Shown one piece after another: positions 27,159-56,984 of a stretch of 64,000 bases of DNA; position 1 is the stretch's first letter, and every line of letters starts with the position of its first letter. Position numbers and translations under genes: made by a program. The DNA lies in assembly GCA_963764625.1 (NCBI GenBank), contig CAVXTH010000006.1, positions 830,048-894,047 on the forward strand, in the 5' to 3' direction. Source of the stretch: Candidatus Krumholzibacteriota bacterium. Its GTDB lineage: Bacteria; Krumholzibacteriota; Krumholzibacteriia; JAJRXK01. The notes below the pieces were generated by a model. It did not search any database. It was not told where the DNA came from and saw only the letters and a list, made by a program, of their open reading frames with translations.

Positions 27159-27187
27159 GGCCCATCCCGTTAGGCTCGGGACGGGCC
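27159..27187 (-). other. Intercistronic hairpin between the two C25 genes
   Basis: GGCCCGUCCCG-AGCCUAA-CGGGAUGGGCC with no U-tract. Confidence 0.55.
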
Positions 27188-27218
27188 CCTGCATCCCCCC
27201 ACAATTCGCCCAACCTGG

Positions 27219-32039: not shown

Positions 32040-32274
32040 GTTCTTCCTCCTGGAATGCAGCTCTCCGCGGGATGGTTCCGTCGAAGAGGCAAGAGTTGCG
32101 TAAATAGAAGAGAACCAACGACCCGGCTTCGATCGCCCCTGCCGTGGGACGGTATCTTCCCCCAGAGCACACGGTATACGTGCGCTGAAGCCGGAAGACC
32201 GACTGCGCAGAGGAAAGCGAACAGGAGCCTGAGTCTTTTTCACGAGTTGCGAGCCCAACGAGATCGTGGGTCAG

Positions 32275-32338: not shown

Positions 32339-33667
32339 TTAGCGATAGCTCTGGGTCGCGGAAATGCCCTCGCTCAGCCGCCGAAGATAAAGATGGGTCC
32401 CCGGGGCAAGCGGCTGGCTCCGGGCCAGGGGGATGTCGAGAAGGAGCGGTCGTTCCGTGTAGTTGCGAATGATGGTCCACGGTCCCCGTTGCAGAACCGA
32501 CCAACCCCGCCGCCTCAGTTGCGCGACCTCGACATCCACACAATAGCGGACTTCGCCGGTGGATTCAAGTTCGGTGAGCAGGCGTTTTAGTTGCAGCCGG
32601 CCCGCCCGCGACACCAGGGGATTCAGATGCGAGAACTGAAGCCGGTGCGCCTCGACGATCGCGGGCTCCCCTCGTCCCCATGCCCGTGCAACTTGATCCG
32701 CCGCCTGCGAGGCGCCCGCGAAACATTTGGGGTCCGGATCGCCGTAGGGTTCCAGGTGCACGTTTCTGTCCAGGTACACGAATCGATTCGCGCAGCGATC
32801 TCTCCAACGAGAGATGACCTTGATCACCCGGCGCTCGATCTTGCCCCCCAGCCCACTCCGGTTCAGCCCGGGATCGATCTGTTCCCGCTTGGCTTGCACC
32901 ACTTGCAGTCCCTGTCGCGCCCACGCCCGTTCGTCCTGCGCGCCCCAGGTATAGTCCGGAGCAATCACGCTCGCGGGCGCGCGTCCGAATCGCTGGCGAA
33001 ATAACTCACACGACAGATCGGCGAAGGCACGCGCCTGTTCCCCGTTGCCGCTGCCGAGCTCGGTCAATGTCAGCCAATGCGGAAACGCGACCACTCCAAA
33101 GGCGCGTGCACGCACGCTCAAACTGGAAGCCTGCGCAACGGCGTGTTCGTAGGCACCGAGGTCGAAGTGGGTGAGTCCGTGCAGCTCGGCGCGCCATACT
33201 CCCTGCGTGCGCGCCTCGTCCACCGCCTGGTTCAGCCCCGGTCGCGCATAGGCGCCGCAGCTTCCCGGCTGCCGCAAGAGCACCGAGCTTCCCTGAAGGT
33301 GGAAGTCATTCGTTCCGCACGAATCTAGATCGATGGCGGCCATGATGTGGTTGGCTTGAATGACCGCCGGCAATCCGTCGCTGTCGCGATGGGCGCGCAG
33401 AATCGCGGTCAAGGACTCCACGTCCGCCGCGGTCTCCAGAGAGGATTCCGCGTAGCGCTGAAGCCAAGGACTCAGATGGGCGCTCTGGTTCGCGATCGCC
33501 CGCGCGGCCCGAAGATCGGGAACCCAGGCCTCCATACCCCAGTCGTCGCTTTCGATCACCACGAGGTGCCAGCGGCCGAGGTCGATCGCGGAGGGAGCGG
33601 GCGAGAGAAAGTGTGCCGTGGCGAACGCCAGGTACACCAGAACCACGAGGAGACCGGCTCGCTTCAT
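32339..33667 (-). CDS. Polysaccharide deacetylase-like (NodB-fold) membrane-anchored protein
   Basis: N-terminal TM helix, VVIESDDWG, ELHGLTH, APDYTW, EAHR. Confidence 0.65.
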   Translation of the reverse strand: MKRAGLLVVLVYLAFATAHFLSPAPSAIDLGRWHLVVIESDDWGMEAWVPDLRAARAIANQSAHLSPWLQRYAESSLETAADVESLTAILRAHRDSDGLPAVIQANHIMAAIDLDSCGTNDFHLQGSSVLLRQPGSCGAYARPGLNQAVDEARTQGVWRAELHGLTHFDLGAYEHAVAQASSLSVRARAFGVVAFPHWLTLTELGSGNGEQARAFADLSCELFRQRFGRAPASVIAPDYTWGAQDERAWARQGLQVVQAKREQIDPGLNRSGLGGKIERRVIKVISRWRDRCANRFVYLDRNVHLEPYGDPDPKCFAGASQAADQVARAWGRGEPAIVEAHRLQFSHLNPLVSRAGRLQLKRLLTELESTGEVRYCVDVEVAQLRRRGWSVLQRGPWTIIRNYTERPLLLDIPLARSQPLAPGTHLYLRRLSEGISATQSYR

Positions 33668-33669
33668 TC

Positions 33670-34336
33670 TCACCTCTCTGAGCTGGCGCGATAGATCTGA
33701 CACCAGTACCGGCCGTAGCTCATTCCCTCTTCTTCCACTTTGCGCGCCAGCGCTTCCACCTGACGGGGAGCGTAGCCCGAGCGGAACAGCCACGCGATGG
33801 GGGCACGCGGCGTCTGGACCACTTCCTCATTCTGCAGAATCGTCTCCCATTGCGGAATGCCGAAACGCCTTTTGAAGAGAGAACGCACCCCCTCGGGCGA
33901 GACCGTGGCCGCGGCCCGATCCGTTTGCGTCTCCGCCAAGAGCTGCAGCGCCTGCCGGTAGTTTCTCTCGGCCGGAGTCTTCCCCTTGGGATGATCCTCC
34001 AGGACAAAGACCTGGCCTCCATCGCCCAGACAGCGGTGGACTTCGTCGACAGTTCGTCCGGCTGCTTCGCGTATCGAGCTGACGGAGGAGATTCGCCATC
34101 ACGACCGCTTGCAGAGAGTGAGTGCGAAAGGGAAGTCGCGCCGCGTCGGCGGCGAGAGCGATGTAGCCGGCGGGATGCGGAGGATAGGCGCGATCCAAGA
34201 GAAAGGGATGAAGGTCGAGGGAGTCCATGCGCGCGCTGAAGTTTCCCTCGCCGGCGCCAATCTCGACCAATGGACCACGCGCTTGCGCGGTGCGCAGTTC
34301 CTCAGTGATTCTCGTCTCCAAGGGCCAGAACGACAT
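33670..34336 (-). CDS. Class I SAM-dependent methyltransferase; +1 frameshift near 34072
   Basis: LVEIGAGEG and ADAARLPF, continuing as VDEVHRCLGDGGQVFVLED in the next frame. Confidence 0.7.
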
Positions 34337-35609
34337 CGTCGTGTGACGCTCCCCCCTCTTTCGCTTCCGCCGCGATGAGATCGGCGGAGGCCATTTCCTG
34401 CGTCGGCGCTTCCGCCGCCCGCGACGGAGAGGTCCGGCTGGCGGAGGCGCCCAGAACTTCCGGACGAGCCCACTGCTGCTGCGAGTACCGCGGCATCTCG
34501 ATGATCTCCGCCAGCTGGCGTCGTGAGACCTCCGACACGAAGTACTCGCGCGCTCCCAGCAGATATTCGATCGCTTCCCGCGCCGTCGGTCGACCGGTAC
34601 GAGGCAGAGTGTACGCGATTTCCACCGCCATGGCGGCCAAAGCGCCCAGGGCCAAGATGGAGGCGTTCGCCTGCCCGCCAATGAAGACGGCAAAGCCGGC
34701 GAAGGCCAGCGAGGCGAACCACAGCGCGCTGGTGGCGCGCCGGGGACTCATTCCCAACCGGAGCAGACGATGATGCAGGTGCTCGTCGTCAGCGCGGAAG
34801 ATACTCACGCCGCGCCGTCGGCGCCGGAAAATGGTGGTGGCGGTGTCGAGGATCGGGATCGCCATCGCGACGACCGCGATGAGGGGAAGGCTCGGGGTCG
34901 TCTGACTCAGCCCGATGGCCAGTCCGGCCAGCCACAGGCCCAGAAGCATCGAACCCGCGTCGCCCAGGAAGATACGCGGGTACGAGAGGTTCGAGCGCAA
35001 GAATCCCAGGACGCCGCCCAGCATCGCTCCCACGAAGAGTAGCCCCACCGGATCGGTGGGATAGATCGCCATGCCCATCCCCGCGAGCACGATGATCCCG
35101 ATGCCGCTCGCCAGGCCGTCCAGCCCATCGATGAGATTCATGCTGTTGATGAACCCCAGGTACCAGAACAGGGTGAAGGGTCCGCCGAGCAGACCCAACT
35201 CGACCGTGCCCAGGAAGGGAAGGCTGATCTGGTGCAGGGTCAAACCGGAAGCCATGGGGAGCATCACGACCGCGACCTGGCCCAGGAGCTTCTTCTCGGC
35301 GTGGAGTCCAAAGCGATCGTCCAGGACCCCCAGCACCAAAGTCCCCAGACCGGCCAGGCCCAATGCGGCGAAGGAATGGGCCGAGAAGGGCAAATCGACA
35401 AAAAATGCCAGAACCCAGGCAGTGAGCACGACCGACGCGTAGATCGCCAGCCCTCCGCTACAGGGCACCGCCTCTCGCTGCGAGCGGCGCCAGGAGGGAT
35501 GGTCGACCAGTCCCATCGCCATTCCCAGGCGACGAACCAGAGGCATCAGGAGATGAGAGAGAAGGGCGCACGCAGCCACCAGCGCCAGAAGATGCGGAAT
35601 CGAGATCAT
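34302..35609 (-). CDS. WecA/TagO-family undecaprenyl-phosphate HexNAc-1-phosphate transferase with C-terminal tail
   Basis: SGGLAI, GVLDD, NSMNLIDGLDGLA, IFLGDAGS, HLHHRL. Confidence 0.92.
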   Translation of the reverse strand: MISIPHLLALVAACALLSHLLMPLVRRLGMAMGLVDHPSWRRSQREAVPCSGGLAIYASVVLTAWVLAFFVDLPFSAHSFAALGLAGLGTLVLGVLDDRFGLHAEKKLLGQVAVVMLPMASGLTLHQISLPFLGTVELGLLGGPFTLFWYLGFINSMNLIDGLDGLASGIGIIVLAGMGMAIYPTDPVGLLFVGAMLGGVLGFLRSNLSYPRIFLGDAGSMLLGLWLAGLAIGLSQTTPSLPLIAVVAMAIPILDTATTIFRRRRRGVSIFRADDEHLHHRLLRLGMSPRRATSALWFASLAFAGFAVFIGGQANASILALGALAAMAVEIAYTLPRTGRPTAREAIEYLLGAREYFVSEVSRRQLAEIIEMPRYSQQQWARPEVLGASASRTSPSRAAEAPTQEMASADLIAAEAKEGGASHDDVVLALGDENH

Positions 35610-36772
35610 CAACCGCCTACCTGGTCTCCACGAACCGGAAGCAGATCCGGCTCGCGAAGCGCCCTAAGAGTTACTCTCAGCCCCGCGCTCCCACGTAAAC
35701 GAGCGGGCCCGATTCGATCCGGCCGCCGCCAGGCGCTCGCGCAGGGTCGAATCGTCGGCCAGGCGACGCATAGCCCGTTCCAATTCCCCGCTATTCCGCG
35801 GATCGACGAGCAGAGCGGCGTCCTCGGTCACTTCGGCAGTGGCGATCCCTTTCGAGGTCAGCACGGGGCACCCCCTGGCCATGGCTTCCAACGCCGGAAG
35901 GCCGAAGCCTTCGTAGAGCGAGGGAAACAGGAGCGCCAGCGCCCGGTCGTACTCCTTCAGGAGATCGGACGGACGGCAGTACCCCAAAATCTTCAGTCGG
36001 GAAGGATCCGGGTGGGCCAGGATCGTCCGCCGAATACCGGCGTCTTCCCACCCGCGGCCCCCGACGACTCGAAGCGCGGGAAAATCGGGATCGAAGCGAC
36101 ACAGCGCCGCGTGCGCCGTGAGCAAGCGCTCCAGATTCTTCCGAGGCTCCAATGTGCCGACGAAGAGAAAACTCGATCGCGGCACGCCTTGGCGCCGGGA
36201 CCATCCTGCTTCCTCTTCCTCGCCGTTAACCAGGTAGGCTGATGGAACTCCTCCGGGAGCGATCCTGATTTTCCTGACGGCGCTCGGCTCGTACTCGGCG
36301 AGTTCGCGCGCCATCGTTCTCGTCGTCACGAAGACGAGCTTCGATCTACGGATGGATCGCCGCACCACGAACTGGTAGTAGAGGCGTTTCATCCGCGGCA
36401 TCGTCGCGGGGTAATGGTGAAAGGTGAGATCGTGCACCAAAACCGATGTGGCGAAGCGTCCCCACAGCGGCGCGATGAAGTTCACTCCCATCACCAAATC
36501 CACACCCAGGCGTTCCGCCAGTCGCGGGACCGTGGTGTGCGTCGCCATCATGCGACCCCACGAGTCATCGCGCAAGAGCTGAATTGGCTCCACCGAGAAC
36601 CCGTCGATCCCCCGCAAAAAGTCGAATTCTCGCGGGTGAACCGCCGCGATGACGAACTCTTCGTCCTCGCAGAGTCATGCGGCTCAGAGCGCGAATCAGC
36701 TTCGAGGGTATAGACGCCCACACCGGTCTGGCCGGGTCCGACCTGGAGAGCGGGGATGAGAATTCGCCTCAT
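35609..36772 (-). CDS. GT4 glycosyltransferase (MtfB-like); three +1 frameshifts (~36701, ~36669, ~35675)
   Basis: TGVGVYT, VHDL, FVGTLEPRKN, PSLYEGFGLPALEAMARG. The repaired frame ends with a TGATG overlap into the wecA-like gene. Confidence 0.85.
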
Positions 36773-36773: not shown

Positions 36774-38157
36774 TCAGCTCACGCCTTCCCGGCGCACCGC
36801 CGCGGCCGCCATCCCGCCTAAAAGCCAGAGGTGGGGCAGATTCAGCTGGCTAAAGGTCAACATCTGCAAAAGCATGGCCGCGAGGCAAGAGGCCAGCACG
36901 AACGAGAGGGCGCTCTCCCCCCTGCCACCGGGCCGAAACAGGCGCCGAAGCGGCGACAGAGGCCGCGCCAACACCCAGGCCCACAAAAGGGCCCCCACCG
37001 CTCCGGTCTCGGCCAACACGCGCAGAGGGAAAGCTATTCGTGACCGGCCAGCCGAAGACGGCAGCGTTTCCCGAGTCCGCCGCAACCCGATAGAACCAGA
37101 AACCGAATCCACTCCAACCCACCCCGAACAGCGGGTGCGCCAGAAAGAGGCTCAGCGCGGCTTGCCAGGAGCTCAGCCGCGTGAGATTCGAGAGATCGTG
37201 ATGGGCGAAGCTCTGGGCCATCCGGGCCACGAGAAGGCGCGGCAGCTCGGTGATGCCGCCGGCGGTGAACAAGGTGCTCAGCACATTCGCACCCAAAAGC
37301 AGGAGGACGCCCACCGGAATTCCCACCCGCTTGGAAGGACGGGGAAGGATTCCGCGCGCCATGCCCATCCCGGTGAGAAAGAGCAAGAGCAGAAAGCCGA
37401 GGTACACTCCGCGGCTGAAGGTCAGGAGCAGACACACCAATCCCAACAGCAGCGCGAGCGCGCGCCACGCTCTCGACCATCCCCGCGCACGCGTCAGTGC
37501 CATGGTGGTCAAGGGGAGAACGCACAGTAGATAGCTTCCGAAGTAGAGGGGCTCCGCCGCGCCGGAGCGCACCCGCGGGATGCCCACGAAGCTGTGCCCC
37601 AGATAGAGTTCGTCGCTTCCCGACGCGATCGCGGAATTGGAGGAGAGAATCGCGAGCAGTCGATGCCCGGCCGGCAGCTCCACCAGAAACGCCAGCGCGA
37701 GATACAACCCTACCAGCGACGAGAGCAAAAGCCCCAGGCTCGCCGCGCGCTCCCAGCGCAGAAGAGTGCGCTGCGGATCCGCGCTACGCGCCAGGAGCAT
37801 GGTGGGAAGGAGAGCCAGCGCGAAGAAGTAGATGAGTTGCACCGATTGTTTCAGTGCTTTCAGCCAGGGCAGCTCGCCTTGCAGCCCCATCTCCTGCAAG
37901 CGCCACAGCGCCGCGGTGCCCAAAAGGATCCACAGAAGAAGAGCTAGCCAGCGCTCTCCCTCTTCATCCCTTCCCTGCCAGCCCAGAAACGGCAGGAGAA
38001 GCAGAGCCAGCCCCCCGCTCACGAGCGCCGGTTGCGCTCCGGTGCCCAGCGAACGGCCGACGAGCAGCTGCGCCAGGCCCACGCCAATCCAAGGGAGGAG
38101 AAAGAGGGTCGCGGCCAACAACCACTCGGCCGAGCTGAGCGCGCCACGACGCGGCAT
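36774..38157 (-). CDS. O-antigen ligase/polymerase family (Wzy_C) membrane protein; +1 frameshift near 37028
   Basis: RVRSGAAEPLYFG, TFSRG, SNLTR, PLFGVG; TNSFP continues as LRVLAETG after repair. Confidence 0.8.
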
Positions 38158-38162
38158 CGCGT

Positions 38163-39931
38163 TCACCGGACCAAAAGGCCCCCCGCCGCGTGCCCCGTGC
38201 CCTCCAGGAGGCGCGCCGCGTCCTTCAAATTCGCCCGTCGCGTACGACCGGTCCGCGCGACGAGAAGCGCGAGACCGGGTGGCGAGAGTTTCGTCGAGTA
38301 CAGCTCCTCGAAACTCCCGGCCGCGACCTCCAGATCGGGTCGGAGCTGCGCCAGGCGGGCTCTTCACCCGCGAACCCAGATCCAGAACGTTTTCGCCATC
38401 GACTCCCACCAGCCACAGAGCCCCCAGCCCTTGTTGCAGTCGCTGTGCCGCGGCCACCGCTGCGAGATCGGGCGGAATGCTTCCGCCTTCGGAGCTAGGT
38501 CGGGAGAGCACCGCAACTCCGGTGAGCCACGCGGCCTCGTCGGCGTCGCGCACGGTGGGATCGAATCCCTCCACCACCGCGCCCGCGCCACTTCCCAAGA
38601 GGATGGTGATCAACAGAGCTCCCGCCATCGCCATGAGCCTGCGGGGAGACGAGGGGCGCAAGGGAATCTCGGCCGGATGAATGGTCTGGAGGCGACTGTC
38701 GTGCTTTTGCGCGAGCATCTCCGCCTCGACCATGCGCTGCTGTACCAGCTCGTAGGTCTCCTTGGCCATCTTGGCCTCGCGCTCGTAGCGGGCTTCCGCC
38801 GCGGCCAGGGCGGGAATGACCACCATGCGCGATTGCAGCGAATCCACTTCGGCGTCGAGGCGCTCCACTTGCGCCTTGCGGCCCAGGATGTCGGGCTCGA
38901 AGTCGTGGATGGCACCGAGGAGTTTCTCCGCCAGGGCGACTGGATTCCCTTCGAGCGAGGGATCGCTGGGAAGGGTTCGACCCTCTTCCTCCAGCACCGA
39001 AGCCGCGCGATCGATACGCTTGCGCAAGCTCTGGATCTGCGCGGCGTCTTCGTCCGCGCCCGCCGCCAAGAGGTACTGCAGGCGGGCCCGGTCCCTGGAT
39101 AGTTGCTTGCGCAGGGCGTCGGCCACCGACGCGGGATCGCTGTGTAGACTGGCCTGGAATCGCGAATAGATCTTCGCGAGTTGTGCCTCCCGTTCGCTGA
39201 GGCGGCTCTTCTGGCCCGAGAGCTCGGCGTCGTTCATCGCCGCCTCGGCGCGCAGGCGAATGATCTCGCGCACCACCGCGCGCCCTTCCTCCACCAGGTC
39301 CATCACCTGTTGCTTGCTGCGGAAATTTTGCAGCTCCTCGTTCCGATCGTCGAGGATCTTGTGCCACTTCGCCTCTTCCGCGCGCAGGTTGTCCTAACCA
39401 CTCCACCGTCGCGCTGCGGTTGAGGCTGTCCTGCACCGTGGCGTAGGTGCGCAGAGCCAGGTTCGCCAAGCGCGCAGCTCCCTCCGCGGTGGACGCGGTG
39501 GCTTCCACTCGAAGGACTCCGGTCTTGTCTCTCGAGCTCGCGCGGAGCCGGTCATCGAGCGCCATGAGCAGAGCCTCGTCCTCGTCCTCGCTTTTCTTCC
39601 CTCCGAGCTCGCGTAGTTCTTGCAGAAGCTCGGGATCCTGATCGCGGATCGCGTGCACGATGGCTCGGTGCACCGATCCGCTGCGCAAAACCTCGAGGTG
39701 ATTGTTGACGACGAAAACGTACTGCACCGGGAAAGGCCGGCCGTTGCCGAAGCGCAGATCGGCTTCGACCTCGCGGTAGGGAACGATCGTGCGTGCCACC
39801 GCGCGGTAAAGGGTGGGAGTGGTGAGCAGGTAGATGGCAGTTCCCAGAATGGACACCAGCAGCGCCGCCAGGTAGGACCAGCGGTGGCGCCTCACAAACG
39901 CGAAGTAGGGAGCCAATGGCGCCGCATTCAT
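38163..39931 (-). CDS. Wzc/GumC-like polysaccharide co-polymerase with degenerate kinase domain; +1 frameshifts near 39395 and 38361
   Basis: Two TM helices flanking a long coiled coil, PAEIPLRPSSP motif. The repaired tail LLVARTGRTRRANLKDAARLL lacks Walker A and a Tyr cluster. Confidence 0.78.
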
Positions 39932-39992
39932 GGTTCTTCTTTCCGCATGGCCTTCTTTAGTAGCATGGAAGGCCCCGGCGGCCAAGTCAGAA

Positions 39993-40592
39993 TCATGCCG
40001 AGGGAGGGTTCTTCGGGCTCCTCGCGGCTCGGGCATGGGCGTCCGCTCTGGCCAGGGCGGCCTGGACGATCCCGCCCAGGGTGCACCGCGGGGTCTCTCC
40101 CGGCGCCCCGTGCACCAGATGCAGCTCGAAGGGACACTCCAATCCCGAGACGGAACGAATGGCGTGAAGGCCGGCGTGAAACTGCGGCGTCTGGGCTTCC
40201 CGCGACTGCATGACGCAGCCGATGCTCTTGGGAAACAGCGTCCAGGCAAAGATCCCCAGCAAGTAGAACGAGCGCGAACTCATCGCCGTCTTGTTCGCCA
40301 GACACCAGAGCAAGAGATCTGGAGAGTCGAGCCTCTCGGATTGGAGTCGCTTGAGTCTCCTCTCGTCCACCGCGCCCCAATCGGCCACCCGGACCGGACC
40401 CTCGGACCTGCCATCGTTCGCCGCCAAATTCCCCAAACCCTCCCGCAGTTCACTCACCATCCTTCGCACGCGGTGGGAGTCGTCGGGCCCGGTGACCGCC
40501 ACGGAAAAACTGGGCGCCGAATGCGGGCGCAGAAAACTACTCGCGACTCGCTCCCAGCGTTCGCCCACCGCGTGCTCGCGCGCCTGGTTCAT
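39993..40592 (-). CDS. Hypothetical protein translationally coupled to the ParA-CBM48 gene
   Basis: ATGA overlap with the upstream stop; no recognisable catalytic motif. Confidence 0.65.
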   Translation of the reverse strand: MNQAREHAVGERWERVASSFLRPHSAPSFSVAVTGPDDSHRVRRMVSELREGLGNLAANDGRSEGPVRVADWGAVDERRLKRLQSERLDSPDLLLWCLANKTAMSSRSFYLLGIFAWTLFPKSIGCVMQSREAQTPQFHAGLHAIRSVSGLECPFELHLVHGAPGETPRCTLGGIVQAALARADAHARAARSPKNPPSA

Positions 40593-41677
40593 CGAGCCTC
40601 TCCCGAAGGCACCACCAGAACCGAATTCACCTGTCCGTAGGTGTTGCGCACCTGCTCGGGGTTCTCAGGGTCGGCGGTCCAAACCCCGTCCACGATGAAC
40701 TTGTACTCGTAGCAACCGGGAGCAATGGGTAGCTGAGCTTCCCAGTGCCCCTCCCCTCGCCGCTCGAGTTCCATTCCTTCCACCGACCAGTCGTTGAAGT
40801 CGCCGGTGACGCTCACCCGTTCCGCCGCGGGAAAGTAGCCGTGAAAGAGCACGCCGGCGGCCTTGACAAAAGGACCGTGCAAGAGCTCCTCCCACTCCAC
40901 CAGTTCCTGGCCGTCGACCGTCCATTCGCTGGACAGAAGTTCGGAGGCGAGGGCGGCGAAATCGGCCGCGGCCCGGCTGCCGCGATCGAAGCGATCGATC
41001 GGACTCCCGGCCTGCGCGGCTTCGCGAAGTCTCACCGTGGAACGGATGACGGTCTGCGCCAGGCATCCCGGCTGCAGCGCGCGCAGATCCTCCAGAATGC
41101 GTCGAGCGTGGCGGGTGCGCAGATCGAATGCGCTGGCCACGATGCGCAGCCGGGGCGCGTGTCCGCGTTCGGCCTGCAGGCCGCGAAGAGTGGCGGAGAA
41201 GCGTTGTACCGCGTCCACCGAGAAACGCCCCGCATCGACCGGCAGCACGACTTCCGAGCTCGCCAGGAGGGCGTTGAAGGTCAAGAGCCCGACCTGCGGT
41301 GGGTTGTCGATGATGACGAAGTCGTAGGGCATGTGCGAGACGGCCAGACATCCCACAAGGCGCCGCAGTTTGCGCGGAGCGTTCGAGAGATCCTGTTCCA
41401 CCGTGCTCAAGTCGATGTCGGCCGGAACCAGGAAGAGCTCGTTGCCCACCGTGATCCGTGCATCCTCTACCTTGAGCCCCTCTTGCAAATAGAGGTCTCG
41501 CGTGCTGAGGGCGAACTGGTTGGGTTCGAGACCCAGGGCAAGCGTGGCGTGACCTTGAGGATCGTTGTCGATGAGGAGGACGGTGTGACCGGAACCGGCG
41601 AGCGCCGAGGCGAGATTGACGGCGATCGTCGTCTTGCCCACTCCACCCTTTTGATTTGCTACGGAGAGAATACGCAT
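40589..41677 (-). CDS. ParA/Soj-family ATPase fused to a C-terminal CBM48 (AMPK-beta-type glycogen-binding) domain
   Basis: NQKGGVGKTT, IDNDPQG, VIIDNPP; tail VSVTGDFNDW..PGCYEYKFIVDGVWTADPENP..GQVNSVLVV; GAGGAG RBS. Confidence 0.92.
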   Translation of the reverse strand: MRILSVANQKGGVGKTTIAVNLASALAGSGHTVLLIDNDPQGHATLALGLEPNQFALSTRDLYLQEGLKVEDARITVGNELFLVPADIDLSTVEQDLSNAPRKLRRLVGCLAVSHMPYDFVIIDNPPQVGLLTFNALLASSEVVLPVDAGRFSVDAVQRFSATLRGLQAERGHAPRLRIVASAFDLRTRHARRILEDLRALQPGCLAQTVIRSTVRLREAAQAGSPIDRFDRGSRAAADFAALASELLSSEWTVDGQELVEWEELLHGPFVKAAGVLFHGYFPAAERVSVTGDFNDWSVEGMELERRGEGHWEAQLPIAPGCYEYKFIVDGVWTADPENPEQVRNTYGQVNSVLVVPSGEAR

Positions 41678-41921
41678 CGGAAACTCCTCTGCGAAATGCC
41701 ACAGAGCAAGTGAGCCCGATGTTCATGCTCGAGTTGTCTTCGCAGGGGCTCGACGATTCATCGTCTTCCCGCGAGACGGGCGAGTGCGCAAGAAACCGCG
41801 CTGGGGCAGAATCGCAGGAACCTTGCCTGGGCGCAGCATCTCCCCGACCGTCGTTGCGGTCAAGTCCCAAGCGCGCCTCCGGCCGCGGGGCCGCCAAGCT
41901 GAATTCAGCCGCTCCAGCCGC

Positions 41922-42365
41922 TCAATGAACCCCGATCCAGCCCTTTCCCAGCCAGTAGACCACGATTCCCACCGCGATTCCGCCCAAGACCTCCTGCCAG
42001 CTATGGCCGACTAGTTCTTTGAGGCGGGTTCGATCGACCTGGTGGGTCTCGTGGAGCTCGTCGACCATCTCGTTGAGGAGCTGGGCCTGGCGGCCCACTT
42101 CCTGTCGCAACCCGGTCGCTTCGAAGATGAAATAAAGACTGAAGATGAGCGAAATGCTGAAGAGGATGGAATCCCCCCCCTCGACCGAGTAGATGCTGAG
42201 GGTGAGGGTCGTCACCAGCGCGCTGTGACTGCTCGGCATGCCCCCGGTGTCCAGCACTCGAGCGACCGCGCGCACGCCTTCGGCCTTCGCATTTAAGAAG
42301 GGCTTCAAGAGCTGCGCGATCGCCATGCTGCCCAGAGACAGCCAACCGATGCTCCCAATCAACAT
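41922..42365 (-). CDS. Divergent PAP2 family membrane protein (DUF212)
   Basis: AQLLK, TGGMPSSHSA, LKELVGHSWQEVLGG. Confidence 0.9.
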   Translation of the reverse strand: MLIGSIGWLSLGSMAIAQLLKPFLNAKAEGVRAVARVLDTGGMPSSHSALVTTLTLSIYSVEGGDSILFSISLIFSLYFIFEATGLRQEVGRQAQLLNEMVDELHETHQVDRTRLKELVGHSWQEVLGGIAVGIVVYWLGKGWIGVH

Positions 42366-42415
42366 GATGGGCCAAGGCTAGAGGAGCGCAGGCGTTCGAG
42401 CAAGCGTTCCCCTCG

Positions 42416-43456
42416 CTATTCCTGGAAGGGTTGCTGACTGCTGAAGGCCGGCGCGTCCACGTGGAAGAGCTGGATATAGAGCCCGGGGAAAAGAATGCGT
42501 TGGTTGAGCCAGTCGTGAGCCTTCAAAAAGGCGGGGCCCAAGGGGAGTTTGCGGATCACGGGGTCGAGCCAGTAGATAGGCTCGAGCTCGATCCCCATCC
42601 CGAAGCGGTTCTTCAGCTCCTCGATGTTCAGACTCGTGATCTCATAGCTGAGAAAGACACACACCCAGGGACGCTGGTGCGGGCCGATGTCGTAGCCCAG
42701 ACCGAAGCGTCCGTTGGCGTGGTCGTGCCAGATGCTGGCCAGCGTGGCGTTGTCCTGTTCCGAAGGGCGAAACGCCCGCCCCCAATCCTTGTAGCCGAAC
42801 TGCAGGGAGAAGCGATCGATCCATTCGTGTCGAGCCGCCAGATCGCGCCCCTTGGTCGCCATCATCGCGCCCGTGAAATTCGCCACCGGATCGAGAGGGT
42901 CGAAGCGCACGTTGTGGACCCAACCGTTCAAGATCTCCATGTACATTTCGCTGCCGAACTCCCCCCACCACACTCCCTGGGTTCGGGCCCGCCCCGGCTG
43001 CACACCGGCGAAGCGCTGGGTCGCCGCCACGATCCCGCCCAACTCGCGCACCAGGAAGGCGTGCCCCACGAAGTCGTAAACATAGGCCTTCTCCAGACGC
43101 ACGATCTTGAACTTGCTGTCGACACGCCGTCGGCTTCCCACGTGGGTGGCGATGCCATAGAGGGCCAGGTAGGTGGAGGCGACCATGAGCTGCTGGCCCA
43201 GCCCCAATTGCCTGGGCTCAACTTCGGTCTGGGCTCTCCAGCTATCGTGCAGATTCGGTGCTTCCAGCGGGTCGGCTTGGGGAGTGAGGAACTCGTCGCC
43301 GCTCAGAGCGAGAGAGTACCGCGGGGAGCCGAGCTTCGCGTCGCTCTGTGCCCGAGCCGGTGCGGCCGTGAAGGCGAGCACGAGGAAGAGCAGGAGCAGC
43401 GCATGCCGAGGGAGCGCGTCCGCCGTAAGGCCAGAAGATGTCAGAGCGCGAATCAT
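42416..43456 (-). CDS. Exported YfiM/DUF2279-like protein
   Basis: Signal peptide; DFVGHAF and EILNG....FDPLDPVANFTG pattern. Confidence 0.6.
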   Translation of the reverse strand: MIRALTSSGLTADALPRHALLLLFLVLAFTAAPARAQSDAKLGSPRYSLALSGDEFLTPQADPLEAPNLHDSWRAQTEVEPRQLGLGQQLMVASTYLALYGIATHVGSRRRVDSKFKIVRLEKAYVYDFVGHAFLVRELGGIVAATQRFAGVQPGRARTQGVWWGEFGSEMYMEILNGWVHNVRFDPLDPVANFTGAMMATKGRDLAARHEWIDRFSLQFGYKDWGRAFRPSEQDNATLASIWHDHANGRFGLGYDIGPHQRPWVCVFLSYEITSLNIEELKNRFGMGIELEPIYWLDPVIRKLPLGPAFLKAHDWLNQRILFPGLYIQLFHVDAPAFSSQQPFQE

Positions 43457-44552: not shown

Positions 44553-45869
44553 GTGAGCAAGCCCATCGAAATCGCCCCCGCCAAAGGGAAACTGGGAATC
44601 CTGACCCCCGGCATGGGTGCCGTGGCGACCACTTTCTACGCGGGGGTTCTGAGCCTGCGCAAGGGACTCTGCGATCCCATCGGATCCCTCACCCAGATGG
44701 GCCACATTCGTCTGGGCAAGCGCACCGAGGACCGCCAGCCGCTCATCCGCGAGTTCGTTCCCCTGGCCCATCTCGACGACCTCGTCTTCGGCGGATGGGA
44801 TCCCATCTCCGAGAACGCCTACGAAGCCGCGACCACGGCCGGTGTCCTGAAAGAGAAAGATCTGCTGCAGGTCAAGGATGAGATGAGCGCGATTGTGGCC
44901 ATGCCCGCGGTCTTCGACAAGAACTGGGTGAAGAAGCTCGACGGCATTCACGTCAAGAGCGGCAAGACGAAGATGGATCTGGCGGAGCAGCTCATGGCGG
45001 ACATGGACGAGTTCAAGCAGAAAAACGGCTGCGATCGTCTGGTCATCGTGTGGTGCGCCAGCACCGAGGTCTACGAGGAGCCGAGCGAGGTCCATCAAAC
45101 GGTGCAGGCCTTCGAGGAAGGACTGCGCAACAACGATCCGCGCATCAGCCCCAGCCAGATCTACGGCTACGCCGCGATGAAAAAGAAGGTGCCCTTCGCC
45201 AACGGCGCGCCCAATCTCACCATGGACGTCCCGGCCATCATGGAGCTGGCCATGGAGAACCGCGTGCCCATCGGCGGTAAGGATTTCAAGACCGGCCAGA
45301 CCTTGATGAAGACGATCCTCGCCCCCGGCTTCAAGGCCCGCATGCTGGGTTTGAACGGCTGGTTCTCGACCAACATCCTGGGCAACCGCGATGGCGAGGT
45401 GCTCGACGATCCGGGCAGTTTCAAGAGCAAGGAAGTGAGCAAGCTCAGCGTGCTCGACACCATCTTGCAGCCCGAGAAATATCCCACTCTCTACAAAGAC
45501 CTCTACCACAAGGTGCGGATCAACTACTATCCGCCGCGTGGAGACAACAAAGAAGGCTGGGACAACATCGACATCTTCGGCTGGATGGGTTACCCCATGC
45601 AGATCAAGATCGACTTCCTGTGCCGCGATAGCATTCTCGCCGCGCCCATCGTGCTGGATCTGGCGCTCTTCATGGATCTGGCCCAACGCGCCAACCAACG
45701 CGGGATCCAGGAGTGGCTCTCGTTCTACTTCAAGAGCCCCCAGGCTGCCCCGGGCCTGTATCCCGAGCATGATCTCTTCATTCAGCAGACGAAGCTCAAG
45801 AACACGCTGCGTCACTGGATGGGAGAAGACCTCATTACGCACTTGGGTACCGAGTACTACCCCGAGTAG
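44553..45869 (+). CDS. ino1: myo-Inositol-1-phosphate synthase
   Basis: WCASTE, FANGAPN, GKDFKTGQT, NILGNRDG, CRDSILAAP; AGGAGG RBS. Confidence 0.95.
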   Translation: MSKPIEIAPAKGKLGILTPGMGAVATTFYAGVLSLRKGLCDPIGSLTQMGHIRLGKRTEDRQPLIREFVPLAHLDDLVFGGWDPISENAYEAATTAGVLKEKDLLQVKDEMSAIVAMPAVFDKNWVKKLDGIHVKSGKTKMDLAEQLMADMDEFKQKNGCDRLVIVWCASTEVYEEPSEVHQTVQAFEEGLRNNDPRISPSQIYGYAAMKKKVPFANGAPNLTMDVPAIMELAMENRVPIGGKDFKTGQTLMKTILAPGFKARMLGLNGWFSTNILGNRDGEVLDDPGSFKSKEVSKLSVLDTILQPEKYPTLYKDLYHKVRINYYPPRGDNKEGWDNIDIFGWMGYPMQIKIDFLCRDSILAAPIVLDLALFMDLAQRANQRGIQEWLSFYFKSPQAAPGLYPEHDLFIQQTKLKNTLRHWMGEDLITHLGTEYYPE

Positions 45870-45878
45870 TCTCGAGAC

Positions 45879-47129
45879 TTGAGCACTGAAGTCGACACCC
45901 GGCGTCCACGACTCCCGGCGGCGATTTCGTATGGAGCAGCCTTCTACGGCTCTCTGTTCGTGAATCTCGCCCAGTCGATCCTCCTGTTCCGCATTCTGGG
46001 ACCGGCGAGGACCGGCGTGTGGCTGGTGCTCTTTCTGCTCTTCGACTACGGCCAGCATTTCCACTTCGGGGTCAATCCCTCGCTGAATCGGCAACTCCCC
46101 TTGCGGATGGGTCAAGGCCGAAGCGACGAAGTGCTCCTCTACGCGCAGCGCTGCGCCGGTTTGCTCACGCTTCTCTGCTGCGCTTGGGTGGTCACGGCGG
46201 GCGGGGTGTCGTTGGTGTTCTACCGCGCGCACCCCTTCGGGGCCGCCGCGTTCATCGTGGCGGTGATCCTCGAGCTCTGGCTGCAGTTCCACCTCGGCCT
46301 GCTCAAAACGCACTCGCGCTTTGGCCGGGTGGGGCTGGTTCTGCTGTTCCGCTCCTTGCTCAACCTGAGCCTTTTGCCGATGGTGGTGGCCTACGGGCTG
46401 CACGGCGCATTCGTGCGCCTCGTCATCATGCAGGTCTTCGCCCTCATCCTCGCGGTGATCTGGGCGCCCCTGCATCCGCGGCTCGATTTTTCCGGCAATC
46501 GCTACGAGATCTTCCGCGACGGTTTTCCGCTTTTGGCGGTGGCGTTGGTGTTCAGCTTCCAGTTCACCATCAACAAGGCGCTCATCGCGGCCGGCTACGG
46601 GCAGGCGGTGGTGGGAAGCGAGTACGGTCTGGCCGCGGTGGGACTCTCCATCATGATGGTGGTTCCCGGAGCCCTCGGCGTCACCTCCTACCCCAGCATG
46701 CTCCAGCTCTTCGGGGCCTACGGGCGAGCGAGCCTGCTGCGCGCGCGCGTGCTCCGGCACACGCTCTACGTGGTGGTCATCTCGACGGTCGCCGTCGTCC
46801 TGGGGTGGCTTCTGCTTCCCTGGGTGGTGGCCACCGCCCTGCCGGCGTACCAGCAGGGAGTCCCGGCTGCTCGCTGGATTCTCCCGGGGGTGATCTTCTT
46901 CTCGGCCTCGGTGCCCTCGACCTACTTCCTGCAGACCATTCGCCATCAGGACCGGCATCTGGTGGTCAGTCTCTGCGCGCTCGGCCTCCAGATCGCACTG
47001 GTGGAACGCGTCATCCATCGAGGTGGTTCGGTGGTGGAGGTCTGTCAGGTCACCTCCTTGGCCTACGCGATCTACGGAGTGGTCCTGTTCTCGGTCTTTC
47101 TGTGGGGAGCCAGGGAGCGCGCGAGTTGA
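45879..47129 (+). CDS. Wzx-type oligosaccharide flippase
   Basis: About 12 TM helices, RILGP..G.W start pattern. Confidence 0.75.
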   Translation: MSTEVDTRRPRLPAAISYGAAFYGSLFVNLAQSILLFRILGPARTGVWLVLFLLFDYGQHFHFGVNPSLNRQLPLRMGQGRSDEVLLYAQRCAGLLTLLCCAWVVTAGGVSLVFYRAHPFGAAAFIVAVILELWLQFHLGLLKTHSRFGRVGLVLLFRSLLNLSLLPMVVAYGLHGAFVRLVIMQVFALILAVIWAPLHPRLDFSGNRYEIFRDGFPLLAVALVFSFQFTINKALIAAGYGQAVVGSEYGLAAVGLSIMMVVPGALGVTSYPSMLQLFGAYGRASLLRARVLRHTLYVVVISTVAVVLGWLLLPWVVATALPAYQQGVPAARWILPGVIFFSASVPSTYFLQTIRHQDRHLVVSLCALGLQIALVERVIHRGGSVVEVCQVTSLAYAIYGVVLFSVFLWGARERAS

Positions 47130-47195
47130 CACGCGCGCGGGTTCGAAGATAGCCTCGCTCAACCCCTCCATCCCACTCGCTTGGAAAGAGTCTCC

Positions 47196-48377
47196 ATGGA
47201 ACCCATTCCCTTTCACATTCCTTCCATCGACGAGAGCGACATCCCCGGAGTCCTCGAGGTGTTGCGCGAGCGCTGGGTGACCACCGGTCCCAAGTGCCGT
47301 CAATTCGAGACGGAATTCGCCCAGTACCTGGCCGAGGAATCCGGGGAGGAACTGCACTGCATCGCGGTGAATTCGGGCACCGCGGGCTTGCATCTCGGCC
47401 TGGAGGCACTGGGAGTGGGCCGCGGCGACCTGGTCCTCACCCCCAGCTTCACCTTCACCGCCTCGGCCGAAGTGGCGCGCTATCTGGGCGCGGACCCGCT
47501 CCTGGTGGACAACGAACCCGATCAATTCCACGTGAGCGCCACCGCGTATCGAAATGCGTACGCGAAGCTACCCAAGGACCAGCGCAAGCGCGTGAAGGCG
47601 ATCGTGCCAGTGCACTACGGCGGCATCCCGGTGGAGATGGATGAACTCGAGGACTTCTGCCGCGCCGAGCGGCTCGGGCTGGTGGATGACGCCGCACACG
47701 CTCTGCCCACCCGGCGCAAGGGCAAGCTCATCGGGCGCTACGGCGATGTCACTTCCTTCTCCTTCTATGCCACCAAGACTCTCTGCACCGGAGAGGGCGG
47801 CATGGCCGTCACCCGCAATGCCGAGCTGGCGGCGCGCATGCGCACCATGCGTCTACACGGCATCAGCCACGACGTCTTCGATCGCTACCGGAAGACAGAC
47901 AGTTGGTACTACGAGGTGGTGGCGCCGGGCTACAAGTACAACATGAGTGACATCATGGCCGCGCTGGGCCTGAGTCAATTGAAGCGAGTGGACAGTTTCC
48001 GGCTCCGTCGTGCCGCCATCGCCGCCGCGTACTCCGAAAACTTCTCCGCCGTCGACGGGCTGATCGCCCCCAAGGAAAGCTACGGCAGCGACCGCTATGC
48101 CTGGCACCTCTACCCCCTTCGGGTCAAGGGGGGACGCGCCGTGCGGGACGCGTTGATCACGAAGCTGGCCGGGCGCGGAATCGGCACCAGCGTTCACTTC
48201 ATCCCTTTGCATCTACAGCCCTACTACCGCGACACCTACCAGCTGAGTCCCAAGGATTTTCCGAACGCCCAGGCCCTGTTCGAGAGTGAAATCTCCTTGC
48301 CCATCTACCCCTTCATGAAGATCGAGCAGCTCCACTGGATCATCAAGCAAGTCGTTGATTGTATGTCGATTGAGTGA
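47196..48377 (+). CDS. DegT/DnrJ/EryC1 sugar aminotransferase
   Basis: NSGTAGLHL, DDAAHA, SFYATKTLCTGEGG, GYKYNM. Confidence 0.95.
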   Translation: MEPIPFHIPSIDESDIPGVLEVLRERWVTTGPKCRQFETEFAQYLAEESGEELHCIAVNSGTAGLHLGLEALGVGRGDLVLTPSFTFTASAEVARYLGADPLLVDNEPDQFHVSATAYRNAYAKLPKDQRKRVKAIVPVHYGGIPVEMDELEDFCRAERLGLVDDAAHALPTRRKGKLIGRYGDVTSFSFYATKTLCTGEGGMAVTRNAELAARMRTMRLHGISHDVFDRYRKTDSWYYEVVAPGYKYNMSDIMAALGLSQLKRVDSFRLRRAAIAAAYSENFSAVDGLIAPKESYGSDRYAWHLYPLRVKGGRAVRDALITKLAGRGIGTSVHFIPLHLQPYYRDTYQLSPKDFPNAQALFESEISLPIYPFMKIEQLHWIIKQVVDCMSIE

Positions 48378-48409
48378 ACACGAGTGAACCCGGCAACGAG
48401 CTTTCGAGC

Positions 48410-48437
48410 TTGACACCCCCGGCCCGGCGACTAGTCT
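48410..48437 (+). promoter_or_regulatory. Internal sigma70 promoter before the sugar transferase
   Basis: TTGACA-N16-TAGTCT. Confidence 0.5.
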
Positions 48438-48476
48438 CATGCCGATTGGGCAAGTTCCAGCGTCCGGGAGAGGGGA

Positions 48477-49073
48477 ATGCCGCGATTCATCGATATCACC
48501 GCTGCGGCACTCGGCTTGGTGCTGGGGGCTCCGCTGTGGTTTGTCATCGGGTTGGCGGTGAAGCTTACTTCTCCGGGACCGGCGCTCTTTTCCCAAGAAC
48601 GCATCGGCCGTCACGGACACCTCTTCCAAATTCTGAAATTTCGCACCATGCGTCTCGACCCCACGGGTGAGTTCTATCTTCTCACTCTCGGAGACCGCGA
48701 TCCGCGCGTGACCAAAGTGGGACGCCTACTCCGTCGCTGTAAGCTCGACGAAATTCCCCAGCTCTTCAACGTCCTGCGCGGAGAGATGAGTCTGGTGGGT
48801 CCGCGTCCGGAAGTTCCGAAGTTCGTGAGCTTGCACGACGCGCTGCAGATCGAAGTCTTGAGCGTGCGTCCGGGGCTGACCGATCCCGCCAGCATCGTAT
48901 TTCGCAACGAGAGTTTGCTTCTGGAGAAGGCGCTCGATCCCGAGCGCTACTATCGCGAGAAGATCCTGCCACGGAAACTCGCGCTCAGCCGCAGCTACAT
49001 CAATCATCGCTCACCGCGAAGCGACGTCGGCATCATCGCCAAGACCCTGCAGAAGGCGGTCTTCCGCGGCTAG
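48477..49073 (+). CDS. Monotopic phosphoglycosyl transferase (Bac_transf, PglC-like)
   Basis: [33 protein letters not shown]. Confidence 0.95.
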
Positions 49074-50257
49074 AGTTCTGGCGGTGGCTTTGGCTTCTCC
49101 CACCCCTCGTTTCGCAGCATTCCCAGGTACACGAAACCCGAGAGATAGGTCGCGCTGAGCGGATTGTCCGTAAGCGCATACAGGGTGAGCCCGACCATGA
49201 AGGCCAGAAGGAAGGGCCGGTCGTTGCTCGCGAAGCGGCCGTGCATGCGCCAGGCCCACAGGACGATCGCCAAGAGGAGGATGAGGCCCCCCACCACGCC
49301 TCCCTCCACCACGAAGCGGAGGTATTCGTTGTGAGGGAAGTTCGGGTCGAAGACCCCCTCCTGTCCCGCGCCCAGACCCCGCCCGAACCAGATGCTCTTG
49401 TGAAACTGATCGAGGTACCGGGCCCAGATGATCCTGCGACCGCTGAAGTTAAACTGGTCGCCGCCCATTCCGTACATGCGGTCGACCATGACGGGTGCGT
49501 AGACCACCATAGCCACCCCCACCGCCATCGCCCCCACATACGCCCAGCCCTTCAGGCGCCACAGGGCATTGCGGGCGTCGCGGGAGCGGATGAAATACAC
49601 CAGCGCAGCCACGAACGCGGCGAAGAGGCCCATCCGCGCGCCGCTGAAGATCAGAAAGATGAGATTCAGGAAGATCAGGGCCCCCATCGGCCAGCGGCGC
49701 GTCCGCACCCACTCGTGGAGGGCTACCAGGACTCCCGCGAAGGCCAGAGCCGCGAAGTAGTCGCCCTTGGTTGCTCCCTGGAGACGGAAAACTCCGCCGA
49801 AATACCCGGTGTAAACGCGGTGGAAGCCCCCGAACTGGAAAATCAAACCCACCAGCACGCTGATGAGTGGAAGGAGTGCGACCAGAAAGGCCAGGGGCAT
49901 CCGCCTGCCCGGTCCGAACTTCGCCTCGACGAACAGCCAGGGAAGCGCAAGCGCGAGGACCGCCTGCAAGGTGTAGGTGGGTTTCAGGCCGGGGGCCAAA
50001 TGATGGCTAAACCAGCCCAGGAAGAAGGTCTGGACCAAGATGAAACAGAGGGCATACAGGGGCCAGGGTTCGTGCTTCTTCCACAGCCCGAAGGCGGCGA
50101 CGTTGGCGTAGAGAGCGAGGAGCAGCAGCAGGCGTTGGGCGGGCTCGAGCCATTGAGCGGTCCCTGAGGAGATCTGGCCGTAGAAGACGTAGCGAAATCC
50201 CACCGCCAAGAGGGCGGTCGCAGAGAACAAAGAGATCGTAGCTACCCGTTTGAGCAT
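49070..50257 (-). CDS. O-antigen ligase family protein (WaaL/Wzy_C)
   Basis: RLQGAT, SGARMG, SGRRIIW, FGRGLG, PHNEYLR..EGGVVG. Confidence 0.85.
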   Translation of the reverse strand: MLKRVATISLFSATALLAVGFRYVFYGQISSGTAQWLEPAQRLLLLLALYANVAAFGLWKKHEPWPLYALCFILVQTFFLGWFSHHLAPGLKPTYTLQAVLALALPWLFVEAKFGPGRRMPLAFLVALLPLISVLVGLIFQFGGFHRVYTGYFGGVFRLQGATKGDYFAALAFAGVLVALHEWVRTRRWPMGALIFLNLIFLIFSGARMGLFAAFVAALVYFIRSRDARNALWRLKGWAYVGAMAVGVAMVVYAPVMVDRMYGMGGDQFNFSGRRIIWARYLDQFHKSIWFGRGLGAGQEGVFDPNFPHNEYLRFVVEGGVVGGLILLLAIVLWAWRMHGRFASNDRPFLLAFMVGLTLYALTDNPLSATYLSGFVYLGMLRNEGWEKPKPPPEL

Positions 50258-52158: not shown

Positions 52159-52571
52159 TGTGGGGCCGGCTCCTTTGGATTCAAACGGGGTTTCTGGGGA
52201 GGTGATAGGATAGGACCATCCATCCCGATACGTCTACAGCGCAAACTCAAGCTCGGCCCTTCCCCCGCCTTTTTGCGTTTGTAGATCGACGCAACCCCCG
52301 GATGTGAGCTCGTAGCCTGGTGATGTCTACGCCCCGCCCAATTTCACTCCGATTCGAGAACCTCACCGTTTGCTGCGCCGCTCGTGATAGTCCTTCCCCA
52401 ACCAGACTAACTCCAGTTTGAAGAATCTCCTCAACGGTCCAGCAGATTATCGTCGACTGAGACCTTCGCACTCCGTAATGGCTATTTCCCTTGCGAGCAA
52501 GGCCGTGATAAGTTCTTGCATCTCCGCGTACTCGTTCTGGATGCACCATTCCACGCAATGGGGGTCTATGT

Positions 52572-56982: not shown

Positions 56983-56984
56983 GC

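Follow-up and report, generated by a model that had tools for sequence, protein, structure and literature searches.

ATPases of the ParA/MinD family are known to position DNA, protein organelles and envelope machines. Granules of polyhydroxybutyrate (PHB) are tethered to the nucleoid by PhaM and PhaF, which are passive DNA-binding proteins. The present analysis concerns a pair of genes in the 64,000-nucleotide stretch of Candidatus Krumholzibacteriota DNA shown above (the window): a fusion of a ParA/Soj-type ATPase with a family 48 carbohydrate-binding module (CBM48), 362 amino acids (aa) long and encoded at 40589..41677 on the minus strand, and the 199-aa gene directly downstream of it, here called the partner (39993..40592, minus strand). 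The sequence features of the pair suggest, with a probability of roughly 45%, a two-gene ParA-type module that would use ATP to tether alpha-glucan particles to the nucleoid or to spread them over it. With slightly lower probability, this may be the first ParA/MinD-type system with a storage-polysaccharide cargo, one in which a dead-fold partner would carry a ParB-like activating peptide and which would be wired into an operon in Krumholzibacteriota. The question bears on how bacteria place and inherit glycogen, and it is directly testable, since the family is large, occurs in many phyla and has a clear domain logic. The main text of a 2024 review of the ParA/MinD family contains no occurrence of the words glycogen, carbohydrate or granule (PMC11407121), and the fusion is described in no paper retrieved by literature search.

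The ATPase domain of the fusion (residues 1-250, 40928..41677, minus strand, delimited by motif coordinates and the family alignment) shares all its hallmarks with chromosomal ParA/Soj proteins of solved structure (8ray, Thermus Soj 1wcv/2bek and 6iub). These are the deviant Walker A motif with its signature lysine (KGGVGKT, residues 10-16, 41630-41650), the DxD motif (DNDPQG, residues 37-42, 41552-41569), Walker B (VIIDNPP, residues 121-127, 41297-41317) and two arginines, located in the segments DLRTR (residues 185-189, 41111-41125) and STVRLREA (residues 213-220, 41018-41041), all on the minus strand. Both arginines align with those of the FDxR and NVRL segments of 8ray; in Soj, arginines of this type serve in DNA binding. 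Among proteins of known structure, ParA 8ray (3e-34) and Thermus Soj 1wcv (5e-31) come closest; Helicobacter pylori Soj 6iub aligns at 5.6e-24, and the alignments to solved ParA/Soj proteins cover residues 2-249. McdA (6noo) is also a detectable relative, at 3.6e-12. In Pfam, AAA_31 matches residues 1-170 at 2.6e-40 (138.7 bits vs a cut-off of 27) and CbiA matches at 1.7e-19 (70.4 bits vs 25.4), while the score against the NCBIfam ParA_partition equivalog NF041546, 102.4 bits, is below its cut-off of 180.

The C-terminal part of the fusion is a glycogen-binding module of the AMPK-beta type (residues 274-357, 40607..40858, minus strand), identified by Pfam and by alignment to the CBM of AMPK beta1 solved with cyclodextrin (1z0n, 6.8e-09). 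The family AMPK1_CBM matches residues 285-357 at 7.4e-14 (52.2 bits vs a cut-off of 26.8) and CBM_48 at 5.7e-10 (39.8 bits vs 22.4), and the motifs GDFNDW (residues 292-297), YEYKFIVDGVW (residues 323-333) and DPENP are present. As in the AMPK beta modules 1z0n and 1z0m, the tryptophans, the basic residue and the asparagine are kept at the positions that align with the sugar-contacting residues of 1z0n. Unlike AMPK beta, the module is joined to a bacterial P-loop ATPase without any kinase scaffold, and the loop leucine is replaced by Phe/Tyr. The initial annotation, which had described an intact ParA/Soj domain fused to an AMPK-beta-type CBM48, is thus borne out, all of its quoted motifs being found and the Pfam scores lying above their cut-offs. 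A bacterial tyrosine kinase of the Wzc/CpsD type (BY-kinase) was considered as another identity and rejected: the score against eps_fam TIGR01007 is 35.4 bits, below the cut-off of 108.05, and the C-terminus consists of the CBM48, without a tyrosine cluster.

Both halves of the fusion are, as their alignment indicates, under selection. The alignment holds 118 proteins of 340-410 aa, two truncated ones having been dropped, and 2 of the 118 lack the CBM. The ATPase positions K10, G11, G12, G14, K15, D37, D39 and D124 are identical in 118/118, as is the Soj-type R187; position 216, the second Soj-type position, is arginine in 107 and lysine in 9 of the 118. Conservation of the CBM48 is comparably strict, with W333 and a lysine or arginine at position 326 in 117/118 each, W297 in 116/118, and N351 and an aromatic residue (F/Y) at position 347 in 115/118 each.

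The fusion occurs in many bacterial phyla, in about ten groups beyond Krumholzibacteriota and Omnitrophota by record labels. In a word-indexed protein search, 118 of the best 120 matches carry PF16561. Among GTDB species genomes, 48 loci encode the fusion, nearly all of them labelled Krumholzibacteriota or Krumholzibacteriia, and in an even sample of the phylum Krumholzibacteriota it is found in 110 of 151 genomes (87/117 high-quality genomes, 57/69 genera). Of 101 sampled Omnitrophota genomes, 69 give a match of 1e-45 or better, and in 57 of these it reaches the CBM. A search seeded from Omnitrophota returned 574 related stretches, and both domains are covered in all of the best 80, which are labelled Omnitrophota, Planctomycetota classes, Myxococcota, Rokubacteria, Thermodesulfobacteriota, Deltaproteobacteria, Acidobacteriota, Gemmatimonadales, Eisenbacteria and Krumholzibacteria, with one metagenome-assembled genome of Bacteriovoracaceae. 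Two side observations concern this distribution. In 12 Omnitrophota genomes (G193, G205, G222, G214, G230, G175, G187, G204, G220, G245, G226 and G176), close ParA relatives in open reading frames (ORFs) of 390-515 aa match residues 1-255 only and carry a different C-terminal extension. A full-length fusion with a ParB-like partner also lies on a 2,977-bp contig (L196) binned with a Methanobacteriota archaeon, for which a binning error is more likely than archaeal occurrence.

The joining of the two domains is not an assembly artefact, a possibility that the initial annotation had raised against itself. Contigs from four independent public metagenome runs, 1-2% divergent from the window, span the ParA/CBM boundary, and among these X1 record 6 (40343-41213) additionally covers the junction with the partner gene. 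No indel is present in 39993-41677 among the listed contigs lying there, none of which covers the whole stretch.

The partner is tightly linked to the fusion. Its start codon (40592-40590) overlaps the stop codon of the fusion (40591-40589) in an ATGA junction, as previously reported and now confirmed by direct reading, and the GC content at third codon positions (GC3) of its ORF, 0.80, equals that of the neighbouring genes. No Pfam or NCBIfam family matches it, and plain tblastn reaches only six close loci. In contrast to its earlier description as an orphan, the partner belongs to a conserved family: a jackhmmer profile seeded with a 291-aa gene in the same position at a distant locus recovers it at 1.3e-12. 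With a 23-member profile, the partner is found directly downstream of the fusion, on the same strand, in 40 of the 43 loci in which the fusion gene is complete and followed by at least 700 bp of sequence (22 of these loci fed the profile), and two of the three misses had tblastn matches to the partner. The conserved neighbourhood that the earlier reading had proposed to look for is therefore present on the partner side. The family is, as far as its sequences tell, small and fast-evolving, with 166 proteins recovered by profile among 1.84 billion representatives, and its members come in two lengths, the long form having about 270-300 aa and the short form, to which the window's copy belongs, about 180-200 aa. 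A second profile, built on long forms, detects the partner in 51 of the 151 phylum genomes, of which 49 carry the fusion with the partner adjoining it; this profile undercounts partners, because it misses the short form of the window itself.

Many loci of Omnitrophota and Planctomycetota have, in place of a ParB-like partner, a gene of one of two other classes after the fusion, namely a membrane protein of about 108 aa with a conserved E-G-K-F-F-A motif or a protein of about 130 aa with a lysine-rich, histone-H1-like N-terminus. They occur at L126, L134, L136, L139, L146, L155, L166, L169, L175, L185 and L197, and also at L133, L149, L165, L178, L181 and L190, and they are alternative partner classes.

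The partner begins, as in the ParABS systems, with a ParB-like peptide. In most of the phylum the motif reads R-x-H-H-I-S-x-I-A-H-x-F-L. The gene in the same position in Omnitrophota, Rokubacteria, Myxococcota and others has a basic residue followed by L-G-R/K-G-L-x-D/E-V/I-S-H-L-F-L, and two loci within the phylum (L047 and L144) hold intermediate forms. The start of this genome's own ParB has a matching L-G-K-G-L-S-A-L-I pattern. A regular expression for the motif, composed post hoc after the sequences had been seen, matches in the 420 nt that follow the fusion at 33 of 44 phylum loci and 34 of 77 multi-phylum loci, and in 0/96 control windows taken 3 kb upstream. In the Omnitrophota loci the partner profile gives no match beyond this N-terminal motif. 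The earlier suggestion that the partner's N-terminus is an ATPase-activating peptide is supported, from sequence, by the conservation of the motif across phyla, and it is qualified by the window's own copy (residues 10-21, 40530..40565, minus strand, placed by alignments), which is a diverged form.

In contrast to the ParABS systems, the fusion bears a C-terminal CBM48, no ParB_N protein is adjacent to it, and the genome's own parAB is encoded elsewhere. A single ParB_N match exists in this 3.57-Mb, 9-contig genome; it lies at C8:172168, directly after a canonical parA whose 270-aa product is 34% identical to the fusion. The window indeed lacks a ParB, as had been noted from its sequence, and the fusion is an additional ParA to which no ParB belongs, because the single ParB_N match adjoins the canonical parA. 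It had also been considered that homologs might consistently sit beside parB as ordinary partition proteins; the adjacent gene is instead the non-ParB partner in 40 of the 43 loci. A related explanation takes the fusion for a common DNA-partition ParA that belongs to a mobile element, integrated or former, and happens to have an extra domain, the partner being a divergent centromere-binding protein. The fusion is most similar to DNA-partition ParAs and the partner carries the ParB-like peptide, both of which would fit. This explanation is nevertheless very improbable: the partner lacks any ParB_N, helix-turn-helix (HTH) or ribbon-helix-helix domain and any Pfam match, the locus keeps one chromosomal position and gene order throughout the phylum, the CBM48 is strongly conserved, and no repeats or mobile genes were noted beside the fusion in general scans, which included no repeat search at the locus.

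Regarding the body of the partner, structure prediction points, with moderate confidence, to a MinD/ParA-like fold that lacks the P-loop. It is unlike ParB in being an alpha/beta domain without a ParB, HTH or CTPase fold. The AlphaFold2 model of the short form (predicted local distance difference test, pLDDT, 81) shows a five-stranded alpha/beta domain behind an N-terminal helix. Its matches in VIA-align are generic, with Z values of 10-12 overall, including a Rag-like GTPase (Z 12.3), receiver domains, and the N-terminal domain of CpaE (Z 11.5, root-mean-square deviation (rmsd) 2.8, 122/122 residues). Foldseek against the PDB gives weak and mixed matches for the same model (TM at most 0.5; G-alpha, Bms1 and flavodoxin-like). 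The long-form model has a pLDDT of 84, the first 45 residues being of low confidence, and about half of its best 50 structural matches belong to the Mrp/MinD/ParA/Get3/NifH class. Cfd1 is the top match (Z 11.0, 196 residues, rmsd 4.3), and Pyrococcus furiosus MinD (Z 10.0), ApbC (Z 10.0), ParA 8ray and ParF (Z 9.2 both) are among the others. At the position of the P-loop, the partner has a strand-loop-helix with no lysine in the alignment. An ESM Atlas search with the long partner gave 0.84, below the recognition mark. The predicted complex of two ParA domains (residues 1-262), two ATP and the partner, run without controls, scored 0.04 vs a mark of 0.32 and is evidence neither way.

An intact Soj-like ATPase and an intact CBM48, both constant from phylum to phylum, and an adjacent partner with a ParB-like peptide, present in many lineages, together make up the anatomy of a ParA positioning system in which the ATPase itself holds the cargo. 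Cytoplasmic alpha-glucan would be the most economical cargo, and the tethering or spreading of glycogen is therefore the favoured reading. In such a cycle, the ATP-bound fusion would form the usual sandwich dimer and bind the nucleoid non-specifically via its conserved Soj-type arginines. Each dimer would present two CBM48 modules to alpha-1,4/1,6-glucan, so that many weak contacts could keep glycogen particles on the chromosome. The ParB-like peptide of the partner would trigger ATP hydrolysis and release, and the P-loop-less body might attach to the ATPase or to some further component. The particles would in this way be handed on, spread without clumping and inherited by both daughters. The location in an envelope-glycan operon, described below, could couple carbon storage to surface-glycan synthesis.

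Among the described systems, McdA/McdB, which positions carboxysomes, and other orphan ParA/MinD systems are similar in that an extra ParA stands beside a small, fast-evolving, lineage-specific partner that is not a ParB, and by analogy nucleoid-based ATP cycling is expected for the fusion as for McdAB. In contrast to McdAB, the cargo module is on the ATPase rather than on the adaptor, the partner showing no recognisable binding domain, and the presumed cargo is a polysaccharide rather than a protein shell. The proposed outcome, storage particles placed on the chromosome and inherited by both daughters, is that of PhaM and PhaF, while the means would differ, an ATP-driven ParA cycle with a dedicated activator taking the place of passive binding. 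The design, with a cargo module on the ATPase and an activator resembling a degenerate relative of that ATPase, is undescribed for the ParA/MinD family.

The type of the module also brings in another explanation, in which the pair is a glycogen-sensing regulator. The CBM48 would, as in AMPK, signal the status of the glucan store and alter DNA binding or dimerisation of the ATPase, thereby tuning chromosome organisation, replication or operon expression while the glycogen itself stays where it is. It is consistent with this that the CBM is of the AMPK-beta rather than the enzyme type (AMPK1_CBM scores above CBM_48), that the ParA-CBM linker is short and contains the conserved residues W262, L266 and G268, which suggests fixed docking, and that Soj-type ParAs regulate DnaA. 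Co-transcription with a glycan operon would also suit a carbon-status switch. No regulatory target can be identified, however, no DNA-binding domain is present beyond the ParA surface, and a dedicated partner that carries a ParB-like peptide points to the type of a positioning cycle and not to that of a sensor, which leaves sensing a rather improbable alternative.

The evidence linking the fusion to glycogen comes from the host genome and from one relative. Judged by its genes, the host makes glycogen: contig C8 encodes GlgA (497.8 bits) and a phosphorylase, and four other CBM48 matches are present. In the relative G029, the fusion heads a complete same-strand glycogen gene cluster, which comprises a 125-aa CBM48-only protein, two GT4/GT5-type synthases with starch-synthase domain matches, a GH57 branching enzyme with BE_C, a GT35 phosphorylase and a GH77 glucanotransferase. 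The CBM48-only protein (locus L108, G029:C33:29500-44500, at 4467-4844) has a basic N-terminal tail and lies between the fusion and the synthase genes, and no recognisable partner was found at this locus; the protein could stand in for the partner as a cargo-bound adaptor. This cluster is newly recognised here, together with the Krumholzibacteriota partner family and its putative MinD/ParA-like body, the invariant envelope-glycan operon, and a set of module-bearing genomes without detectable glucan genes.

Those genomes are among several findings that weigh against glycogen as the cargo of a partner-driven ParA cycle. In G022 and G028 (96% complete) the pair is present and no GlgA, GT35, GH57 or GH13 match was found. 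The GT5-type GlgA (TIGR02095) is detected in 0/17 genomes of family f6 and 0/9 of family f8, in which 6 and 7 genomes, respectively, have the fusion; for f8, the G029 cluster suggests the use of other synthases. Conversely, in genus g30 GlgA is present in 5/5 genomes and the fusion in 0/5, so that glycogen metabolism does not need the fusion. GlgB is of no use as a glycogen marker, because the GH13 enzyme is rare (13/151 phylum genomes above the cut-off). The GH57 genes of Omnitrophota lie on other contigs than the fusion in 5/5 genomes. Across 65 multi-phylum loci, all with at least 8 kb of flank and examined up to 10 kb on each side, tblastn with the G029 enzymes finds alpha-glucan genes near the fusion in only 3, all of them GH57, and GT35 or GH77 in 0/65, with the reservation that the sensitivity of a single query across phyla is limited. 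Since related genomes are not independent, these counts on glycogen carry no statistical claim. Of the polysaccharide and glycogen genes whose conservation beside the fusion the earlier reading had suggested testing, the envelope-glycan genes are conserved neighbours within the phylum and the alpha-glucan genes are not, given these 3/65. The near-invariant gene order in the phylum is a further point that glycogen does not explain. As for the partner, the motif of the window's clade escapes the regular expression, keeping the V-A-S-S-F-L part, and a profile-profile comparison of the partner with ParA (hhalign) gave a probability of 0.2%, which is not significant.

The gene order itself is best described for Krumholzibacteriota, where the same-strand array consists of DUF212 (divergent PAP2), the fusion, the partner, a secreted protein of about 190 aa, Wzy_C, a GT4 glycosyltransferase, a WecA/MraY-type transferase and a protein of 450-480 aa. 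From its families, the array looks like an undecaprenyl-phosphate-linked envelope-glycan pathway, with which the pair is probably co-transcribed in this phylum. Counting only loci with enough flank, the DUF212 membrane protein (41922..42365, minus strand, Pfam 1.4e-34) lies upstream on the same strand in 41/42 loci. Downstream, Wzy_C is present in 35/35, the GT4 (35664..36617, minus strand, Glycos_transf_1 4.7e-26) in 33/34 and the polyprenyl-phosphate sugar-phosphate transferase Glycos_transf_4 (34302..35612, minus strand, 1.3e-30) in 31/31. The final conserved gene (32339..33793, minus strand), present in 30/30, encodes in the window a 484-aa protein that lacks a Pfam family match and has a single hydrophobic segment near its N-terminus; its D-D-W and H-G-x-T-H segments bear a possible resemblance to metal-dependent polysaccharide deacetylases. 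Pfam confirms the neighbour families in a locus of only 50% identity (L052), where several stops and starts overlap.

In the clade of the window, a Wzz/PCP-like chain-length-determinant gene (38166..39931, minus strand, GNVR and TIGR03007 matches) replaces the secreted protein directly after the partner. Two 1-nt insertions, at 39395 and 38361, disrupt the window's copy of this gene, its three frames corresponding to intact ORFs of 581-614 aa at L009 and L011-L013. The following Wzy_C gene (O-antigen ligase/polymerase-like, 36774..38157, minus strand, Pfam 8.8e-13) has a 1-nt insertion at 37030. Metagenome contigs X1 and X2 lack the extra bases at 39395, 38361 and 37030, and X3 and X4 lack that at 38361; the three bases are probably (long-read) assembly errors or strain-specific lesions. 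An 818-aa ORF (36850-39306) that would be a Wzz-Wzy fusion was rejected as a frame artefact of these single-base insertions.

The association of the pair with this operon is strong, yet the two are separable in both directions. In G022 and G028 (family f8), DUF212, the fusion and the partner are followed by a peptidase, without glycan genes, and in one Omnitrophota locus the fusion lies between a pilin gene and two unknown ORFs. In G069, on the other hand, DUF212, a partner-like ORF and the whole glycan array are kept and the ParA-CBM48 gene was not found. The partner-like ORF of G069 (locus L111, G069:C7:1124000-1136500, at 10236-10808, minus strand, profile E 1.5e-12) lies between DUF212 and the glycan genes and is either a relic or the partner of another ATPase. 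The coupling to the downstream polysaccharide genes proposed in the initial annotation fits the phylum-wide operon and is weakened because pair and operon occur without each other.

These observations bear on the main rival of the glycogen reading, namely that the pair organises or regulates the neighbouring envelope-glycan machinery in the manner of BcsQ or TadZ/CpaE. It would place or gate the assembly line of WecA-like transferase, GT4 and Wzy_C, and its CBM48 would bind a cytoplasmic glycan intermediate, or glycogen as a landmark. As in the cellulose (BcsQ) and pilus (TadZ/CpaE) systems, a gene for a ParA/MinD-family ATPase lies within an envelope-polymer operon, and the strict same-strand order across the phylum, with the overlapping stops and starts of L052, is in line with such a role, as are the Wzz/PCP gene directly after the partner in the window's clade and the resemblance of the short-form partner model to the N-terminal domain of CpaE. 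Pfam CBP_BcsQ also matches the fusion, weakly, with 39.1 bits vs a cut-off of 21.3. The NCBIfam model for BcsQ (TIGR03371) scores 70.4 bits, however, well below its cut-off of 157.85, the locus has neither bcsA/B nor tad genes nor any cellulose synthase in the operon, and the fusion differs from BcsQ and TadZ/CpaE in its Soj-type arginines. Furthermore, G022, G028 and Omnitrophota have the pair without Wzy_C, GT4 or WecA nearby, G069 has kept the operon although it lacks the fusion, the conserved residues of the CBM48 are those of the alpha-glucan type, and hydropathy reveals no membrane segment in the fusion or the partner. An organiser of the glycan machinery thus appears unlikely, although it is the best placed of the alternatives to glycogen tethering, and a module serving the adjacent operon would represent a new kind of spatial control for Wzy-type pathways.

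The spacer between DUF212 and the fusion (41678-41921 in the window) is kept at about 170-310 nt, and the same spacer is found in 41 loci; it may be a conserved leader or contain an internal promoter. Rfam gave no match in 39800-42500, and a sigma-70 scan found no promoter-like site at the window locus. Beyond the operon, two further gene sets were observed. A second surface-glycan set adjoins it at 44553-52158 and encodes a myo-inositol-1-phosphate synthase, a 416-aa multi-pass membrane protein, a DegT aminotransferase, a Bac_transf sugar transferase, a second Wzy_C and Polysacc_synt_2. On the other side (22373-32258, minus strand), two giant tandem proteins of 1587 and 1679 aa combine Peptidase_C25 (gingipain-like), FG-GAP repeats and a C-terminal FlgD_ig. 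Finally, 52000-64000 is marked by a drop in GC content, from about 0.64 to about 0.52, and in the GC3 of the ORFs, from about 0.8 to about 0.5, a change in composition suggesting that this part of the window may have been horizontally acquired.

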